Numbered from the stretch's first letter, positions 336-8,603 are shown. The stretch: DNA of 64,000 bases from an uncultured Prevotella sp. (GCA_947164965.1 CAMUYR010000009.1:8072-72071), one strand, 5' to 3'. Numbers and translations are program-made. Notes: generated by a model not told the origin, from the letters alone.

Positions 336-842
336 ATGAAAAAGATTGTAATGACAATGGTAGCCCTGCTGACAATGACAGCAGCTGTAGCACAGGACAA
401 CGAGAACCGTCAGCGTCGAGAGTTCAAGAAGCCAACCCCCGAGGAGATGACCAACCGTATGGCTGAGAATCTGAAGTTGGATGACAAGCAGAAGTCAAAA
501 GTGCTTGAGCTGAACAAGGAATATGAAAATGTGCTGATGGGTGGTCCTGGCATGGGCAGAGGCTTTGGCAAAGGTATGGGCCGTGGTCCTCGTCCTGATG
601 GTGAGACAGGTGCCACAAAGGGTAACGATCAGCAGAAGCAGCGTCCTCAGCGTCCAGAACTGACTGACGAACAGAAGGCACAGATGAAGCAGCATATGGA
701 GAAACGCCAAGAGTACGACAAGAAGCTGAAGAAGATTCTTACCGACGAGCAGTATAAGAACTATCAGGAACAGCATCGTCGTCATGGACACGGTCCACGT
801 GGTCCTCGCGGTCACCGCGGTCCTCGTCCAGACATGCAGTAA
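336..842 (+). CDS. DUF4890-like (Spy/CpxP-like) exported helical protein
   Basis: Signal peptide ending AVA-Q; PEEMTNRMAENLKLDDKQK and LKKILTDEQYKNY motifs; G/R/P-rich low-complexity stretches. Confidence 0.7.
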   Translation: MKKIVMTMVALLTMTAAVAQDNENRQRREFKKPTPEEMTNRMAENLKLDDKQKSKVLELNKEYENVLMGGPGMGRGFGKGMGRGPRPDGETGATKGNDQQKQRPQRPELTDEQKAQMKQHMEKRQEYDKKLKKILTDEQYKNYQEQHRRHGHGPRGPRGHRGPRPDMQ

Positions 843-2932
843 ACCGTTTCCTTGTTGCTGTCGATGGGCAAGCGCTGGTTATCAATGACAAGCCAGCCTT
901 GCCCATCGCTGGCTTTTATCTTAATCTGTTCACGGTTCATCTCGATATGGATGAGTCCGTGTGGTGTAGGCACATCACCTTCCAGCCATTCCAGATCGCC
1001 CAGGTTAGGCCTTACTTCATATTCCTCATAGCCAGGCTTCGTAGGCTGTACGCCCAGATAATATTTGCCTAACAGATAGACGGGCGATGCTCCCCAGGCA
1101 TGACACAATGATTTGCCATAGGGACGTCCGTACATCGCCAGATGCTGGGTGCCGGATTCCGATGGGACGTATTTTTCCCAGAACGAGGTAGCACCCTCAC
1201 GTAGCATTCCACCCCAGTAGTCGCGCATTTCCTGAAGCACTTGGGTATGCAAGCCGTCAATGCAAAGCGTCTCCAGTTCGTAGAAACGCATGTATGGCGT
1301 CGTGATAGGATCGATATCAGGATTGAGCATCACACTTTGCATAATCTCCCGTCGCTCTTCTTCGTAGGCTAGTCCGTAGAGGATGGCAAACATATTGGGG
1401 AACTTGGTGATCTGTTTGTTCATCACACCTTCCTCAATGGCATGATAATATGCTTTCTGTTCGTAGCTCCAGAAGGTCTGCTTAATCTTATTGCGCAACT
1501 CTTCTGACTTCACACGATAGCCGTTCTTGATGCCTAGCAGTTTGGCACAGATAGCCATCGTCTCCATAGCCTTCATAAGCAGTATCTGCTCGAAGCACAG
1601 CGTGCCACGTTTGTGCATGGGGAAATCCACCCAATCTACGAAAATCCAGTCGTCAGGTTGTCCCTCGGCCATACCGTTTGCATTCAGACGCCCTTCTACA
1701 TAATCCATCAGCGTCACCATGCGTGGCCACATCTCACGTACAAAGTCAATATCAGCAGTATACTGGTAGTAGTCGAGGATAGACTTAAACCAGTAGAACG
1801 TATAGTCCATGATGGTATTGACATGAGCCGTCACAGGGTCCTTACCGCGTAGCTGACGGATGGTACGCTTCACGCACTCCGTATCGAATCGCAGGTAGTA
1901 GTTCATCAGATACGACTGGATGGCATCACCGCTCCACGTCCAACGGTCTCGTTTAATGCCATCCATGAAAAACTCACGGGTGGTGAGGTCCATGGTGTAG
2001 GCTGCCACATCCCAGATGCGGTTTATCTCGTCGTCAGAACAACGGAACGAACCACTATGCTGTGGATTATAAGGCGTGTATTCGTAGTCCATCAGCACCT
2101 CGTCGTAGCTGGCGTCGCCGTCCTTTTCGATATAGACAAATCGAAAGGCTTTGCTGCTACACACGGAGACAGTCCCCCTGTGCTGAATCGCACACGGGGA
2201 CAGTCCCCCTGTGCTAAGTCCCCCTGTGCTAAGAACGTCGAGCGTTTCGCAATGCTCTTTGTCAAGGGCTTCCTCGCGGCTCTCACCATAATAAATATGG
2301 ATGGTTCCGTGCAGGCCTTTTATCTTCAGATAGCCGAAGGTCTCTTTCCCGAAATCGTAGAGGGTGCCGTTGGTTGCGATGACATCGCTACTTATAGGGC
2401 AAAGCTCTTCGCGCTCCAGACGGTAGCTGGAGGGTGGGGTGTCAGGACTGTCGAAATGCCAGGAAGCAGCAGGCACGTAGATGCCAGAACCATGCGCCAC
2501 GCCGTTTTCGTCTATCCATAGCTTGTCTTCATACGTGGCGAGCCAGGTAGAGTCGGTATGGATGGTGCTGCCTTCTATGTAGAGGGCTGGTGGTGTGGCT
2601 TGATTCCATACTTTCAGGTTGAGCTTATGTTCTCCTGCAGGTATACGATAAGTAGATGCAGGAAACTGCAACTTACCATCGAGTGCAAAGTTATACTGTC
2701 CCTCGCAGGCAATGGTGATCGTCTCCTCCTGCTCAAGGGTAAAAGCCTTCGAGAATTCTACCGTCACATAGTGTGAATCCTGTTTCCAGAACGGTGGAAA
2801 CATAGCACCACGTTCCGTCCTGCGGTTATTGAAAATATTACCTAGCCATATCTCGAAGTCGCCAGGATACCATATCCAGGTAGCCTTTTGGCTGTTAGCC
2901 ATTAGCTGTTGGCTATTATTTGATGCCTGCAT
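812..2932 (-). CDS. Alpha-L-rhamnosidase, GH78 family (BT1001-like)
   Basis: FRCSDDEINRIW, DGIKRDRW.WSGD and SLCHAWGASP motifs; TWIWYPGDFEIWL N-terminus; no signal peptide. Confidence 0.85.
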   Translation of the reverse strand: MQASNNSQQLMANSQKATWIWYPGDFEIWLGNIFNNRRTERGAMFPPFWKQDSHYVTVEFSKAFTLEQEETITIACEGQYNFALDGKLQFPASTYRIPAGEHKLNLKVWNQATPPALYIEGSTIHTDSTWLATYEDKLWIDENGVAHGSGIYVPAASWHFDSPDTPPSSYRLEREELCPISSDVIATNGTLYDFGKETFGYLKIKGLHGTIHIYYGESREEALDKEHCETLDVLSTGGLSTGGLSPCAIQHRGTVSVCSSKAFRFVYIEKDGDASYDEVLMDYEYTPYNPQHSGSFRCSDDEINRIWDVAAYTMDLTTREFFMDGIKRDRWTWSGDAIQSYLMNYYLRFDTECVKRTIRQLRGKDPVTAHVNTIMDYTFYWFKSILDYYQYTADIDFVREMWPRMVTLMDYVEGRLNANGMAEGQPDDWIFVDWVDFPMHKRGTLCFEQILLMKAMETMAICAKLLGIKNGYRVKSEELRNKIKQTFWSYEQKAYYHAIEEGVMNKQITKFPNMFAILYGLAYEEERREIMQSVMLNPDIDPITTPYMRFYELETLCIDGLHTQVLQEMRDYWGGMLREGATSFWEKYVPSESGTQHLAMYGRPYGKSLCHAWGASPVYLLGKYYLGVQPTKPGYEEYEVRPNLGDLEWLEGDVPTPHGLIHIEMNREQIKIKASDGQGWLVIDNQRLPIDSNKETVYCMSGRGPR
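2160..2233. repeat. Palindromic GGGGACAGTCCCC element, about 2.5 copies, in frame in GH78
   Basis: cacacggagacagtccccctgtg / cacacggggacagtccccctgtg / gtccccctgtgctaag; encodes LSTGGLSTGGLSPCAIQHRGTVSV. Confidence 0.85.
2886..2917. repeat. Heptamer array (GCYAAYN family) forming the GH78 N-terminus
   Basis: TTTTGGC TGTTAGC CATTAGC TGTTGGC; encodes NSQQLMANSQK. Confidence 0.8.
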
Positions 2933-5900
2933 TGTTTTTGATTTGTTCGTTTACTTGTGGTCCGTTATTCTCCCAGATGTTGCCAGGACCATTGGCATTC
3001 TTCAGGAATTTCTCTGCTGGTGTCCAGTTGTCACGGATGGTGATGTTCGAAGATCCCTCGTCGGTATACAGATAGAACCAATGGTTGGGGGCGTGGACGT
3101 AGCTGGGTGTAGCAATGTCGCGTACCACATTCTCACTAATCAGCGTTCCTGGCTGATTTCCCAGCGTATAGATACCTGCACAGTCGTACATGTGTTGGGC
3201 GTAGTTGTAGATGAGATTTGCGTGCACCTTATTATCCTTCATACATACCAGGTCACGGTTCCAACCCCAACCCAGCGAGATACCCGTGTATGAGACATCG
3301 TGGATGGTGTTATGCTCGATATTGATGCCCGAAACATAGCCCGCACAGATGGCCACACAGCCCCAGTCTTCATTGGTGACGTTATAGAAGAGGCTCTGCT
3401 CCACCGTCTGGTTGGTACATACCTCCCGAAAGTCTGTGGGCTGATAGGGCAGGTGAGTCTCTAATCCTTCTGGCGAGAAGGAACCACACACATAGCCATT
3501 CATCGCGATATCCGTAAACGTACAATGTGTCGTCTTGCCACCACGACAGCCCACGACATAATCAAGACCAGAGCCACCCAAGTGTTCAAAGCGGCAATTC
3601 TCGAAATTGATGTTCTCCGTATGGCGTAGTTCCACAGCGGCATCAGCACGTCCCAACCATCCCTGATTGTCCAGTTTGTGATTGTTCGGACGGTCTATCT
3701 GTGGGCGCAGCTTATAAGCTTCCGTCAGATACATGCCAGCCTGCAAGGGCACATGACCTTTTTCCGATGGGCGCATCCAAGTCGTATGACTGAAGGTGAC
3801 ACCTTTTATCTCTATATTCCGCACAGGACGTTCTGCTGTACCTATTACCTCCACCAACGTTTCGAGAACAGGAACGACGGCAGTAAATTGTTCACTTTTC
3901 ACGTTTAACTTCTCACTTTCCCGTGGCATGTAGTATAGCTTGTGCTCACGGATGTCGTGATACCACTCGCCAGGTACATCCAGCAGCTCTTTGGCATTTG
4001 TCAGATAGAATGGTGACGGATGTCCTGTATTGGGTGTCATAGGCGAAGGCCAGGGATGCTCAAACTGCAGCTTAGCTTCCGGGTTGTGAAATCTCACAGC
4101 TACGGAATCGCCCTGTGCTGTCAGACTCTTGATGCGCAGGTTCGATGTGCACCACATCTCGTGCAGTACCATCTCAGCGTATGGCGCCTTCATGATTGTC
4201 TCCACCGCTTTCTTTGGTACCCACAGAATATGGTTCTTCTTGTCGTAGGTGCGTATGCGGTTCATCTCTTCAAAGTCCTGTATGTCACGTGCTCGGATGG
4301 CTTTCTCTCCGTTTACCCATAACTGCCTGAAATCCAGAGGTCGCCCGTTGAAGTCTGGCACATCTGCCACCATCAGTTTCCCTTGGCGCTTCCAGTTCTT
4401 AATCGCCACTCCTCCGCTGATTACCGCATTCTCTCCTTCTATGCGCAACCCGCTATCTTCCGGACGCAGACGGATAGGTTCGTAGAGCCAGTAGGTGCCA
4501 GCACCGAGATGGATGGTGACATCAGTGGCTTGTCCTAATCGGCGCATTTCGCGAGCCTTCCTGATGGCATCCGTCAGCGATGAGTCGGGTGTGATGTTGA
4601 TATCTGCAGCCTGGATGGGCAGATACGAGAAGAGGAAGAATAGCAATATGCCTACAAACTTCTTAAAGTGAATAGAAAGCATCGTCAGGTCGTCACTCTG
4701 TTCTGCCTCTCCTACAAATGTGTGTACAGCTTCAGTCATATTATCAATCAGTTGCTTGGGATCTCTGCTTGATGTCTCAGCCACCTCGTTGATGCGCTCC
4801 TCCTGGAACTGCTCGTGGTTGATATTCTCAGCCTCCGTCAGTCCGTCTGTATAGAGGAAGATGGTTGTCTGGTCGTCAATCTCTGTTTCCTGCAGCGTAA
4901 AGTCCCAACCACCCATCACACCTGCAGGCAGGTTCGGATCGCAGGGTAATAAGCCGATGCCTCGTTCACCTATCAAGAGTGGCGCATCGTGTCCCGCATT
5001 ACAATAGCTCATGTGTCCGGTCTTGAGGTCTAGCACACCCACAAACAGAGTTGCAAACATGTTCGAATCGTTGCCTTCAGCCATAGCGTCGTTGATGCGT
5101 CTGACTATCAGGTTGGGTGCTGTCTCATGCATTGAGATAGTACGGAACTGGGCCTGTGTCACAGCCATCACCAAGGCTGCAGGCACACCCTTTCCCGATA
5201 CGTCGCCAATACAGAAGAAGAGGTTGTTGTCGCGGAAATAGAAATCAAACAGGTCGCCACCTACCGCTTTGGCAGGTTTCAGTCGTCCGTAGATGTCCAC
5301 CTCTTGGTGATCGGGGAATGGCGAGAATGCCTTGGGCAACATCGACATCTGGATATCGCTGGCAATATGCAACTCACCTTCTATCATTGCCTTCGAGGCT
5401 GTTGTCTTTTGCAACTGGTCGATATATTGCGTCAGTGATATCTGCATGTTCTCAAACGAGTCGCGCAACTCGCGTATCTCGTCTTCTGTCTTAATATTCG
5501 GCAGTTCCGCATTAAAGTCGCCCTTTGCCACTTCCGATGCCGAATTTGCCAGAGTCTTCAGTGGGAACAGCTGCGAATGGATGACAGTCTTCAGCACCAC
5601 ACCTATCGTCAGCAAGAGCACAATGAGCAGAATCAGCATGTGCATTCGCAACCTGTTAGGCTGCTCCATCACTTTCTCTTCCGGGATAGTGAAGCAGACA
5701 GACCATTGTACTCTCGATACTGGTGCATAGAATACCAGCGAGGTTCCTTGTTTCTTTTTCGATGCGTTCGATGTGAATAGCGCCAGGTCGTTGATAGTGT
5801 CTACGCCCTTTTCCCATCTCAGCATCTTGTTGGCCAACAGCGATGCTTCATTGTCTTTTATCTTTCTCAGTTGTGTGACGGCATTAGCCGTTTGTATCCA

Positions 5901-6617
5901 TTGAATATCAGGATGGCACACAAACTGAGAGTCGCGCCCCAGGATGAACACCTCCGAATAGTCGTAAGGCTTGGCACCTTCCACAATCTGCTGCACCCAG
6001 CGCAGGTCTACGTCGGCACACAGAATGGCATAGGTCTCTCCCTGCTCGTCGTGTAAGGGTACAGAGTATGACACCATCGCACGTTTCGTCGACATCGAGT
6101 CGATATATGGCAAGCACCAGTAGCCTTTGTCCAGCTTGTTGGTGTATATCCAGTTGCTGTCCGTCTCCAGATAGCAGAAGTCGTTTTCCGGACCGCCTAT
6201 CTCGTCCTCAGTCAGTTCACCGGTCATGGGATCGCGCGAGATGGTTGGTGCATAGTAGCGTCCTTGATCGGGAAAATAGTCGGCTTTATACATCAGTGTC
6301 ACGGCGGCGATGTCTTCGTTGGCTTCTATCAGTCGTTGCAGTAGTGTGTTTGCCAGCATCTCGTGAGGCGCCATCATGTAGGCATAGCTGGCTGCTGTCT
6401 TGACTGCCGTCTCAACTGTCGACACACGGTTATCTATCACCTTGATGGCATTCTCCATCGAACGGCTAGCCTGACGGTGTGTCTCTTCAGCAACGATGCC
6501 GCGTGTGTAGTTCATCTGCCATAATCCTCCTACCAGCGTGATAATCGTCACAATACCCAGCACCATGATGGTAGTACGTATCGCAACCGATCTGTTCAGA
6601 ATCCCAGGAAGTTTCAT
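2916..6617 (-). CDS. Fusion: TM-Cache-TM-HAMP-SpoIIE/PP2C phosphatase + hydrophobic linker + GH141-like beta-helix glycosidase
   Basis: Single 1233-aa ORF. PP2C motifs VGGDLFDF, IGDVSGKG, NAGH, LYTDGLTEA, SDDLTML; then FVGILLFFLFSYLPIQA; then BT1002-like LDFRQLWVNG, HVPLQAGMY, DNQGWLGR, YLYTDEGSS, NANGPGN. Confidence 0.85.
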   Translation of the reverse strand: MKLPGILNRSVAIRTTIMVLGIVTIITLVGGLWQMNYTRGIVAEETHRQASRSMENAIKVIDNRVSTVETAVKTAASYAYMMAPHEMLANTLLQRLIEANEDIAAVTLMYKADYFPDQGRYYAPTISRDPMTGELTEDEIGGPENDFCYLETDSNWIYTNKLDKGYWCLPYIDSMSTKRAMVSYSVPLHDEQGETYAILCADVDLRWVQQIVEGAKPYDYSEVFILGRDSQFVCHPDIQWIQTANAVTQLRKIKDNEASLLANKMLRWEKGVDTINDLALFTSNASKKKQGTSLVFYAPVSRVQWSVCFTIPEEKVMEQPNRLRMHMLILLIVLLLTIGVVLKTVIHSQLFPLKTLANSASEVAKGDFNAELPNIKTEDEIRELRDSFENMQISLTQYIDQLQKTTASKAMIEGELHIASDIQMSMLPKAFSPFPDHQEVDIYGRLKPAKAVGGDLFDFYFRDNNLFFCIGDVSGKGVPAALVMAVTQAQFRTISMHETAPNLIVRRINDAMAEGNDSNMFATLFVGVLDLKTGHMSYCNAGHDAPLLIGERGIGLLPCDPNLPAGVMGGWDFTLQETEIDDQTTIFLYTDGLTEAENINHEQFQEERINEVAETSSRDPKQLIDNMTEAVHTFVGEAEQSDDLTMLSIHFKKFVGILLFFLFSYLPIQAADINITPDSSLTDAIRKAREMRRLGQATDVTIHLGAGTYWLYEPIRLRPEDSGLRIEGENAVISGGVAIKNWKRQGKLMVADVPDFNGRPLDFRQLWVNGEKAIRARDIQDFEEMNRIRTYDKKNHILWVPKKAVETIMKAPYAEMVLHEMWCTSNLRIKSLTAQGDSVAVRFHNPEAKLQFEHPWPSPMTPNTGHPSPFYLTNAKELLDVPGEWYHDIREHKLYYMPRESEKLNVKSEQFTAVVPVLETLVEVIGTAERPVRNIEIKGVTFSHTTWMRPSEKGHVPLQAGMYLTEAYKLRPQIDRPNNHKLDNQGWLGRADAAVELRHTENINFENCRFEHLGGSGLDYVVGCRGGKTTHCTFTDIAMNGYVCGSFSPEGLETHLPYQPTDFREVCTNQTVEQSLFYNVTNEDWGCVAICAGYVSGINIEHNTIHDVSYTGISLGWGWNRDLVCMKDNKVHANLIYNYAQHMYDCAGIYTLGNQPGTLISENVVRDIATPSYVHAPNHWFYLYTDEGSSNITIRDNWTPAEKFLKNANGPGNIWENNGPQVNEQIKNNAGIK
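3891..3918. repeat. Heptamer array (TCACTTT family), in frame in the GH141-like domain
   Basis: TTCACTT TTCACGT TTAACTT CTCACTT; encodes SEKLNVKSE. Confidence 0.7.
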
Positions 6618-6639: not shown

Positions 6640-7899
6640 TTATTTCACATTCAGTTTAGCGTATGCTTCTCCCATCAGCAGCAGGTCTTCATGATGCAAA
6701 AGGCTCACCTCGACACCCTTCTGGAATATCATCACGATGTCGCTGCCGCCAAACTGGAAGAATCCCATCTCGTCGCCCTGCTTCAACTCTTGTCCTACGT
6801 GCAGCGATGGAATCCAGTTGACGCTGCATATCTGCGACATGCCCACAGGCAACATCGCCACGAGTCCGTAGTCCTTCGTTTCGATGATGGCACAGGCACG
6901 TGTCTCTACCATCTGGAATCCTAAGTTGTTCTGATAGTAGTACAGCTTCTGCTCGTCGTCCCACAGCGTATAGCCACCACCTGCTGCAACACCAGGAATG
7001 CGTCGCAGCTCCAGCAGTTTGCCGCTGACGGGGGCATGGTAGCGGTGATAGCAGTTGACGTCCAGGAAGGTATGTGTCAGCGTACCGCCGGCAAAGGCAT
7101 TCTTATAGGCTGAATCATCACCTATCAGCTGTGCGATGTCGCTGAGTTTGGCAGTCTTGATCTGCAGGTCGTCGTAAACCAGTTGGTTGTTGTCGTCGAT
7201 AGCCCATGTCTTCTTGGGCCATGAGTCGGCAGGTGCTATCACATCCGCATCAGCAATGGGTCGCATCTCAGGTGACGCCAGGCTGCGGGCAAAAAACTCG
7301 TTGAAGGTCTTCCATTGGTTGCCCTCGCCATACCATCCTTTCGTCAGTCCCCAGTCGGGGTCCGATGCCAACATCTCGTAGTATGTGTCGTTCCAACTCT
7401 CTTCGGTTTCCAGAAAATCGCCCCACGACTGCGCATAGGTGGTAAGCCACGATGCAAAGGGCTCCACGAATTCGACTGTAGGATAATAGAAGCCTCGGTC
7501 TTTGAGTGCCTCCAACGGCTGGTCTACCACAAACCAGAAGTAGCCGATACCCTGATCTACTCTTCCGTAGAGCGACTGCCCGTAAGTGCCTGGGGCAGGG
7601 TAGGGCATCACGTCCCAAGGCAGACAGCGTATGTTACGGTCTACGAAATCGCAGAACTCGTCGAAATTCTGTGCGGGATTATAGCGTCTGTCGGGATTGA
7701 TGACTGCTGCCTGGCTGATAGCCTGTTCCAACAATTGGCGCACCTCCGTGTTTTCGTTGCAGATGCGAATCAGTTCGTTGACAGCCTCCGTATGTTGTTT
7801 CTGTGGTGGTACTACGGGATTGTCTTCCACACTACACGAGGTGTAGAAGAAGCAGAGTAACGTGGTGAAGACCAGAAGCCTCAGTGTTTTCTTGTTCAT
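6640..7899 (-). CDS. Phosphatidylserine-decarboxylase-family (pyruvoyl) enzyme with a lipoprotein signal
   Basis: FNEFFARSL, PADS, YHRYHAP and FQFGGSD self-cleavage motifs; N-terminal hydrophobic stretch ending YTS-C. Confidence 0.75.
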   Translation of the reverse strand: MNKKTLRLLVFTTLLCFFYTSCSVEDNPVVPPQKQHTEAVNELIRICNENTEVRQLLEQAISQAAVINPDRRYNPAQNFDEFCDFVDRNIRCLPWDVMPYPAPGTYGQSLYGRVDQGIGYFWFVVDQPLEALKDRGFYYPTVEFVEPFASWLTTYAQSWGDFLETEESWNDTYYEMLASDPDWGLTKGWYGEGNQWKTFNEFFARSLASPEMRPIADADVIAPADSWPKKTWAIDDNNQLVYDDLQIKTAKLSDIAQLIGDDSAYKNAFAGGTLTHTFLDVNCYHRYHAPVSGKLLELRRIPGVAAGGGYTLWDDEQKLYYYQNNLGFQMVETRACAIIETKDYGLVAMLPVGMSQICSVNWIPSLHVGQELKQGDEMGFFQFGGSDIVMIFQKGVEVSLLHHEDLLLMGEAYAKLNVK

Positions 7900-8603
7900 T
7901 GGGGAATGCTTAATGTTAGTCCGACAACAAAGTAACCTTTTTGCGAGCAGGGATTACCTATCAGCTGTGCATAGATGGGCACTGAGAAGTGCTCGGTAAT
8001 CTTGATATCCTTGGTGGCTTTCACGCTGACGTTGGTCACCGCAAAGCCGTTGGTTTCATAATAGGTGGTGGCATAGGGTACAACGCCTACCGTTGCCTCC
8101 CAGTTGCAGGTAGCCAGTTTGAAGGGTGCTGTCACTTCAGCATACGACGAATAGGCGCGCTTGTCACTTTTGTTCACACCGTCGCCTCCTGCAAAGATCG
8201 TCTGCCACGAAGCAGTGAGAATGCCGAAGTCGTAGGCAATGAACCCTTCAAACGCATGATAGGTCGAGTGGGCATTGTAGTCGAAATATTTCGTGTCCGA
8301 GTATCCGCTCCAGTAGTCTACGACACCAAGCGTCAGTCCTCCTGTGGTGTACGATGCCGTCAGGTCAAACTCCCTGGCGTCTTCCGATGTTGTCAGACTC
8401 ATCGAACCCCATGCCGAGAGGCTAAATCCCTTCCAGCTGACGCCCAGATTCGGCTGCACACTGGCGTGACCTAATTCCATACCGCGCCAGATATACTGGC
8501 TGACAAAATCTGCGGAGAGGGTTGCTTCCACCTTCTCCTGAGCATTCACTGCAGACCATCCTGCAGATACTAAAAGCACTATGGCAAATAAATAGTTGCG
8601 CAT
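7896..8603 (-). CDS. Outer-membrane beta-barrel, TorF/Gcw_chp-like putative porin
   Basis: Signal peptide ending VNA-Q; ADFVSQYIWRG motif; alternating beta strands. Confidence 0.6.
   Translation of the reverse strand: MRNYLFAIVLLVSAGWSAVNAQEKVEATLSADFVSQYIWRGMELGHASVQPNLGVSWKGFSLSAWGSMSLTTSEDAREFDLTASYTTGGLTLGVVDYWSGYSDTKYFDYNAHSTYHAFEGFIAYDFGILTASWQTIFAGGDGVNKSDKRAYSSYAEVTAPFKLATCNWEATVGVVPYATTYYETNGFAVTNVSVKATKDIKITEHFSVPIYAQLIGNPCSQKGYFVVGLTLSIPQ

Follow-up and report, generated by a model that had tools for sequence, protein, structure and literature searches.

A species-specific in-frame fusion of a SpoIIE-type sensor phosphatase and a GH141 glycosidase in an uncultured Prevotella

The fused reading frame and the systems it resembles

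Membrane phosphatases of the RsbU/SpoIIE/SiaA type, such as Pseudomonas aeruginosa SiaA (PDB 6K4E), are composed of a transmembrane (TM) segment, a sensor, a second TM segment, a HAMP domain and a PP2C domain. The same order is found in the first half of a 1233-aa protein from an uncultured Prevotella sp., whose second half resembles glycosidases of family GH141. The protein is encoded by a single unbroken 1233-codon open reading frame (ORF) on the minus strand, at positions 2916-6617 of a 64,000-nucleotide stretch of DNA (GCA_947164965.1 CAMUYR010000009.1:8072-72071), referred to here as the window. An earlier note on this DNA, in which the strand was not stated, had described one ORF running from TM-Cache-TM-HAMP-SpoIIE into GH141, and this anatomy is borne out by the reading frame, the Pfam matches and the Kyte-Doolittle profile, where three hydrophobic peaks were obtained (around residues 10-36, 321-351 and 644-675). 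Our best explanation, to which as a whole we give a probability of about 0.6, is that the gene arose by a species-specific in-frame join of two tightly spaced genes of one operon, and that the fusion is tolerated without constituting a new sensory device, its internal signal peptide being predicted to be cleaved at IQA/AD (the slash marks the cut).

With its Cache-HAMP input, the N-terminal half belongs to the SpoIIE/PP2C family. The SpoIIE profile (PF07228) matches residues 463-651 over profile positions 2-191 of 192, with 160.2 bits against a cut-off of 25, and the PDB matches of this half include Rv1364c, RssB, SpoIIE and SiaA. The Asp motifs that coordinate the PP2C metals (GGD455, GD472VSGKG, TD591GL and SD642D643), already described as intact in the earlier note, are invariant columns across 35 homologues. 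In an AlphaFold2 (AF2) model covering residues 317-700, the last residue of the PP2C fold is F651, and residues 644-651 (LTMLSIHF) form its last β-strand. The protein is nevertheless no SiaA equivalog, as it reaches only 76.9 bits with NF038263, for which the cut-off is 700. Unlike the SiaA/RsbU type, it has no STAS or kinase partner gene adjoining it, its conserved neighbour being a PsiD-like decarboxylase gene.

Hybrid two-component systems (HTCS), the usual sensors of Bacteroides glycan loci, share with the fused protein the union of a sensor in the periplasm with an output in the cytoplasm within a single membrane protein, whose gene adjoins glycosidase genes. The fusion is no member of this group: Pfam finds no HisKA, HATPase_c, REC or AraC domain in it, and its sensor is a dCache domain instead of the periplasmic domain of an HTCS. 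Our literature search on PP2C partner-switching in Bacteroides glycan loci returned nothing relevant, and we came across no account of the combined SpoIIE-GH141 architecture and no further example of it.

The closest described counterpart of the C-terminal half is BT1002 of Bacteroides thetaiotaomicron, the founding member of GH141, which adjoins the GH78 gene BT1001. As with BT1002, a GH78-type gene lies directly next to the fusion, and a GH141_M insertion and a β-helix are common to both proteins. By its matches the C-terminal half is a GH141 member and a close homologue of BT1002. GH141_M (PF21231) covers residues 746-899 with 218.4 bits (cut-off 27), Beta_helix (PF13229) gives 31.3 bits, and a phmmer comparison with BT_1002 (PDB 5MQP chain A) gives 800 bits and E = 1.7e-239 over 557 residues, aligning residues 676-1232 (31-587 of the 588-aa C-terminal part) with chain positions 43-615. 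BT1002 acts on fragments of rhamnogalacturonan-II (RG-II), and mutagenesis has identified its D523 and D564 as critical, acting as nucleophile and acid/base, respectively (PMC10154630). Both catalytic residues are kept in the fusion as D1145 and D1186 in the alignment with 5MQP, when an inferred offset of 5 between the chain and the native numbering is applied. The fusion differs from BT1002 in that its GH141 pre-protein sits in frame at the C-terminus of a phosphatase, with the signal peptide internal and the start codon gone. It also differs in its surroundings, since no SusC/D or HTCS gene is present in the 64 kb, where no ORF of SusC or HTCS size was found and none other exceeds 822 aa, in agreement with the earlier note; its enzymatic activity is here a prediction.

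A precedent for such an arrangement is the cytochrome b-c1 polyprotein FbcH of Bradyrhizobium japonicum, which is processed at the internal signal peptide of c1. In FbcH, likewise, one ORF encodes a membrane or cytoplasm-facing N-terminal protein and, after it, a periplasmic protein with its signal peptide intact. The present case differs in that cleavage is predicted, in that the joined proteins do not belong to a common complex, and in that it occurs in a single species.

Origin of the join and its occurrence

Compared with its relatives, the fused ORF reads as a complete phosphatase followed by a complete GH141 pre-protein, minus a stop codon and a spacer. The closest relatives of the phosphatase are stand-alone proteins of 652-654 aa (82-86% identity) ending in ...DDLTM[LM]AIKYK*, and those of the GH141 half are stand-alone proteins of 575-600 aa (83-88% identity) that begin with a normal signal peptide. 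Five related lineages have the two genes as separate, adjoining and co-directional units, with spacers of 2-11 nt between stop and ATG: 2 nt in L042/L043, 3 nt in G165 (where both genes are in the same frame, separated by one TAA), 3 nt in L028 and 11 nt in L014. In all four unfused junction types the signal peptide has 18 residues and ends in x-[QHN]-A/A-D-I. The fusion contains the phosphatase through K652, followed by exactly 18 residues, K653-A670, ending in P-I-Q-A/A-D-I, and its codon 653 reads AAG in the place of the relatives' initiating ATG.

From DDLTM to A/ADI the fusion is 5, 6, 12 and 14 nt shorter than the four relatives, the smallest deficit being the one against L042/L043. This deficit of 5 nt is exactly what puts a GH141 gene lying in the +2 frame in frame with the phosphatase. 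The simplest history would therefore be the loss of a TAA and a 2-nt spacer, followed or accompanied by the change of ATG to AAG, where the figure of 5 nt is relative to the closest unfused relatives. A hidden 1-nt frameshift at the junction was ruled out, given that the other two frames lack a start/stop pattern there.

The join is not the only one known within this type of gene cluster. Fusions of GH127 with GH141 (P0003, P0008, P0009) and of GH141 with GH78 (P0002) are found in relatives and likewise join neighbours of the tightly packed GH31-SSF-GH127-GH141-GH78 cluster; the former proteins have 1216-1253 aa and up to 1618 member sequences, and the latter has 1273 aa and 344 member sequences. 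Those fusions unite two periplasmic enzymes and pose no topological problem, whereas the present one unites a cytoplasmic output domain and a secreted enzyme. It is best seen as a trivial event of the same kind, with the crossing of the membrane as its only unusual feature.

The fusion is confined to this species among everything searched. No second protein with SpoIIE and GH141 was found in a junction-spanning search of 5.8 billion clusters (proteins of 678-2158 aa), nor among the 150 best matches of a phmmer search with residues 440-900 against 1.84 billion representatives at 50% identity, all of which matched one half only. A fused member may be concealed behind the representative of its cluster, as was the case in this very species, and very distant fusions fall below the scores listed. 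When 400 genomes of the genus were searched in six frames, the halves were fused only in the genome of the window (G000), and contiguous with a stop between them only in G165. Moreover, 11 of the 12 GH141 orthologue loci of genus representatives (11 from the 400-genome search plus G015) have no upstream phosphatase, and in most of them GH127 occupies that position. The recurrence in independent genomes for which the earlier note had proposed to look was thus not seen, every other lineage found having two genes. That note had also considered that relatives might all have two separate genes and this strain alone have lost a stop: at the species level the relatives do have two genes, although the stop was lost by the species as a whole and not by a single strain.

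The same junction was found in seven more contigs (L020-L025 and L046), which come from seven samples and several assemblers (MEGAHIT k141, other scaffold assemblies, JGI). The samples are ERZ28019071, ERZ28654336, ERZ27234819, ERZ1667815, ERZ1667814, ERZ28654615 and JGI 3300041004. Together with the window they make eight contigs and seven haplotypes, with 4-70 nucleotide differences elsewhere in the gene, and the conspecific contigs show the order 235-aa ORF, decarboxylase-like gene, fusion and GH78. The protein cluster of the window has 105 members, including other 1233-aa proteins, one of 1115 aa and one fragment of 518 aa. The genome is a draft of 81 contigs with 93% completeness, which by itself would leave room for an error of assembly or sequencing in one metagenome-assembled genome; since the identical junction recurs in independent assemblies, such an artefact is extremely improbable. 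A chimeric contig join was also ruled out, as the order decarboxylase-like gene, phosphatase, GH141 occurs in unfused relatives as well.

Pairwise Nei-Gojobori comparisons among the alleles gave dN/dS values of 0.05-0.16 for the phosphatase half (maximum dS 0.14; 73 polymorphic codons synonymous-only and 22 amino-acid-changing) and of 0.10-0.22 for the GH141 half (maximum dS 0.059; 30 and 15 codons). In the 26-codon linker dN/dS is 0 (maximum dS 0.12; 2 and 0 codons): the peptide is identical in all 8 alleles, and the two changes, both synonymous, are found in L046 only. These data show that the fusion is real and old enough to have diversified, and both of its halves have been under purifying selection since. 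It represents a clean and datable natural case in which two translationally coupled genes, on losing about 5 nt between them, gave rise to a new multidomain membrane protein. The signal peptide of the secreted enzyme is the link that connects it to a cytoplasmic signalling domain, and selection keeps both halves.

Export of the glycosidase and competing readings

The peptide between the two halves is the retained GH141 signal peptide, KFVGILLFFLFSYLPIQA, which consists of KK, the 13-residue hydrophobic core FVGILLFFLFSYL and P-I-Q-A/A-D. By inspection it has the features of a cleavable Sec type-I signal (positive n-region, core of 7-15 residues, helix breaker, small or neutral residues at -3 and -1) rather than those of a stable anchor. 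Positions -4, -3 and -1 are occupied by Pro, Ile and Ala, and its length and type of c-region match the signals of the four unfused orthologues. Ribosomes that translate the phosphatase must continue through GH141 and so produce a full-length chain. The purifying selection on the GH141 half, the signal peptides of its orthologues and the action of BT1002 on RG-II together argue that the enzyme still reaches the periplasm.

We propose that the retained signal peptide, on emerging after the cytoplasmic PP2C domain, would insert N-in/C-out via Sec and carry the GH141 domain to the periplasm, where signal peptidase I would probably cut between A670 and A671, the hydrophobic core being short and the -3/-1 site intact. 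A normal mature GH141 enzyme would be released, the phosphatase would be left with an extra C-terminal membrane tail, and both parts would keep their ancestral jobs in a fixed 1:1 ratio. Export and cleavage are, by signal-peptide rules, the most likely outcome, and cleavage at IQA, which the earlier note had listed as one alternative, is probably the correct reading. If so, the protein would be a natural Bacteroidota polyprotein processed by signal peptidase, useful for the study of how Sec handles internal signals.

Several observations weigh against this explanation. In the AF2 model only the KK pair separates the last PP2C strand from the hydrophobic segment, so that insertion might pin the PP2C domain to the membrane and impair the phosphatase; the linker itself has a pLDDT below 50, giving no structural support either way for a TM helix. 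Of the 105 cluster members 40 were read, and fixation in the species is not proven. Finally, three of nine conspecific alleles or records carry private, possibly damaging changes, which hint at some relaxation or at assembly errors. The first is D1176A in the window: codon 1176, ten residues ahead of the acid/base Asp, encodes Asp (GAC) in each of the 6 conspecific alleles compared with it (L046 not among them), and Asp also occupies the site in 140 of the 141 homologues that have the YVHxPNHW motif, BT1002 included, so that this strain may have a weaker enzyme or its consensus an error. The second is an in-frame deletion of 101 codons in L022 (5950-9348, JGI 3300041004), which removes residues 26-126, thereby truncating TM1 and taking away the beginning of the Cache domain. 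The third is a 10-nt frameshifting deletion at codons 513-516 in L046 (2125-5816, ERZ1667814 scaffold_80337; P0373), which leaves ORFs of 518 and 714 aa on a scaffold that also has an N-run in the decarboxylase-like gene. After this deletion dN/dS in the old frame is at most 0.12, which argues that the lesion is recent or an assembly error.

These lesions could also be taken as signs that the join disabled one half, by misplacing GH141 or crippling the phosphatase, and that the gene is heading to loss; the splitting of the ancestral cluster in this species, described below, points the same way. However, dN/dS is 0.05-0.22 across both halves with dS of up to 0.14, the catalytic and metal residues are intact, and even the segment behind the L046 deletion still evolves as coding sequence, which makes a decaying gene very doubtful.

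The earlier note had favoured an uncleaved protein with three TM segments, in which the linker, as a third TM segment, keeps GH141 in the periplasm next to the Cache domain, so that product release could be coupled to phosphatase signalling. In this reading the phosphatase would respond to the binding or hydrolysis of glycans. The persistence of the fused state in seven haplotypes with both halves under purifying selection would fit this proposal, as would the unchanged linker peptide, a KK n-region suited to N-in/C-out insertion, and the adjacency of phosphatase and GH141 genes kept in at least five lineages at 68-86% identity. But the fusion is found in one species only, and the core of about 13 residues is followed by an intact signal-peptidase motif like those of the cleavable signals of the stand-alone orthologues. 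The wider comparison does not support the coupling either: elsewhere the genes are separate, the constant partner of the phosphatase is the PsiD-like decarboxylase gene, with which it is also paired where no glycosidase is near, and most members of the genus examined have GH127 directly upstream of GH141 without any phosphatase. We thus consider the tethered sensor-enzyme quite unlikely. Its fullest form, a receptor in which an active GH141 beside the dCache domain lets RG-II-type fragments tune a PP2C partner-switching output, appears highly unlikely; it would be a type of glycan sensor distinct from HTCS and SusR/ECF, born of a 5-nt deletion.

Cleavage of a full-length chain has also to be compared with the production of two proteins, in which GH141 is made mainly by internal initiation at M646 and its copy in the full-length chain is incidental. 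The stretch MLSIHFKKFVGILLFFLFSYLPIQA, quoted in the earlier note, corresponds to residues 646-670, and M646, the Met of DDLTML, does begin a plausible Sec signal together with the next 24 residues (MLSIHFKK...IQA), as that note had proposed. Bacteroidota do not need a Shine-Dalgarno sequence, and in L046, where the frame is broken upstream by the 10-nt deletion, the remainder still looks conserved. Yet M646 lies inside the conserved last strand of PP2C, so that the phosphatase explains its presence. The 20 nt ahead of it (-20 to -1) contain 45% A+T and 7 A; the starts of neighbouring genes have 60-85% A+T, with 12 A ahead of the fusion itself and 14 ahead of GH78, and the unfused relatives have an A-rich leader. 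The coding strand within the phosphatase part has no TAnnTTTG promoter motif; a scan for sigma-70 promoters and terminators gave matches at shuffle level only, Bacteroidota promoters being outside the models of the scan. The coupling of termination and reinitiation is lost, and the original ATG has become AAG in all alleles, which is unexpected if independent initiation were needed. Internal initiation is possible, but we judge it unlikely, and less probable than cleavage of the full-length chain.

Gene neighbourhood, partner proteins and feature coordinates

Directly upstream of the phosphatase, whatever the context (L014, L026-L030, L042, L044), lies a gene for a protein of 419-430 aa with the PS_Dcarbxylase fold, whose best solved relatives are PsiD-like tryptophan decarboxylases. 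The pair stands between GH127 and GH141 in L014, L028 and G165, and elsewhere beside Suf genes (L026/L027) or a purD-type gene (L029/L030) with no glycosidase near. Given that the pair also occurs in these non-glycan contexts, a link to glycan sensing is not supported. From its distribution it looks like a mobile two-gene unit that landed within the GH31-SSF-GH127-GH141-GH78 cluster in one sub-lineage. In the dCache domain of the phosphatase the W-x-Y and the Asp of the amino-acid/amine motif are kept and the carboxylate-binding Arg is seemingly absent, and the sensor may read an amine made by the decarboxylase. The constant pairing of this sensor phosphatase with a PsiD-like decarboxylase is the more general biological lead.

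In the genome of the window, another contig (G000:C7:106000-124500, L045) carries a GH141 paralogue, GH31, an SSF symporter and GH127, followed by groEL, and the decarboxylase-like gene, the fusion and GH78 remain on the window contig. This arrangement shows that in this species the cluster broke between GH127 and the decarboxylase-like gene. Together with the varied contexts of the phosphatase-decarboxylase pair, it argues that the adjacency of phosphatase and GH141 is historical rather than a deep functional link, although there may be a lineage-specific one. The case is a caution for guilt-by-fusion (Rosetta-stone) prediction, as the hint of glycan sensing that the fusion gives finds no support in the wider gene neighbourhood.

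The coordinates of the fused ORF, its parts and the adjoining genes are given in Table 1.

Table 1. Features of the fused gene and its neighbours (window positions)
Feature	Position	Strand	Basis or remark
Fused 1233-aa ORF	2916..6617	-	Stop codon at 2916-2918
TM1, about residues 12-34	6516..6584	-	Kyte-Doolittle peak
Periplasmic PDC/dCache sensor, residues 91-308	5694..6347	-	Pfam PF22673 (MCP-like_PDC_1) and PF02743 (dCache_1)
TM2, about residues 325-347	5577..5645	-	Kyte-Doolittle peak; long helix in AF2 model
HAMP, residues 352-396	5430..5564	-	Pfam PF00672
SpoIIE/PP2C domain, residues 463-651	4665..5231	-	Pfam; metal motifs; AF2 secondary structure
M646 ATG, possible internal start, within last PP2C strand	4680..4682	-	Frame inspection; AF2
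K652, last residue of stand-alone phosphatases (...IKYK*)	4662..4664	-	Comparison with relatives
Retained GH141 signal peptide, residues 653-670 (18 residues)	4608..4661	-	All four unfused relatives have the same length
Predicted signal-peptidase I site A670/A671 (IQA/ADI)	4605..4610	-	Motif at N-termini of stand-alone orthologues
Mature GH141, residues 671-1233	2919..4607	-	PDB 5MQP match; Pfam
D1145 (HMYD), counterpart of BT1002 nucleophile D523	3183..3185	-	Alignment; roles from PMC10154630
D1186 (YTDEG), counterpart of BT1002 acid/base D564	3060..3062	-	Alignment; roles from PMC10154630
Codon 1176, GCC (Ala) in the window allele	3090..3092	-	Allele and homologue comparison
Downstream GH78-type α-L-rhamnosidase gene, 17-nt overlap with fusion	812..2932	-	
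Upstream PS_Dcarbxylase-fold (PsiD-like) gene, 22 nt from fusion	6640..7899	-	
235-aa ORF, no family match, 4-nt overlap with decarboxylase-like gene, head of four-gene block	7896..8603	-	

In a search for anti-sigma and STAS partners elsewhere in the genome, as the earlier note had suggested, 7 STAS matches and at least 4 strong matches to the RsbW-like kinase domain HATPase_c_2 were obtained, and three phosphatase-kinase-STAS triads are present at other loci. Within the window, the sole STAS match falls at the C-terminal end of an ORF of 577 aa, some 52 kb from the fusion. A partner-switching role for the phosphatase is, on these matches, plausible. The fused protein as a query gave 17 matches in the genome, mostly to the Cache-HAMP-SpoIIE half and at least 2 to a GH141 paralogue.

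On contigs C27, C1 and C10 of the same genome, several phosphatases carry a fused RsbW-like HATPase_c_2 domain, with a STAS gene next in line, which gives this genome a large partner-switching repertoire. Four further proteins of 657 aa (P0126-P0129) have a sensor and HAMP domain nearly identical to those of the window, and a PP2C domain that by eye resembles that of another paralogue (P0109), which suggests domain-level recombination among paralogous phosphatases.

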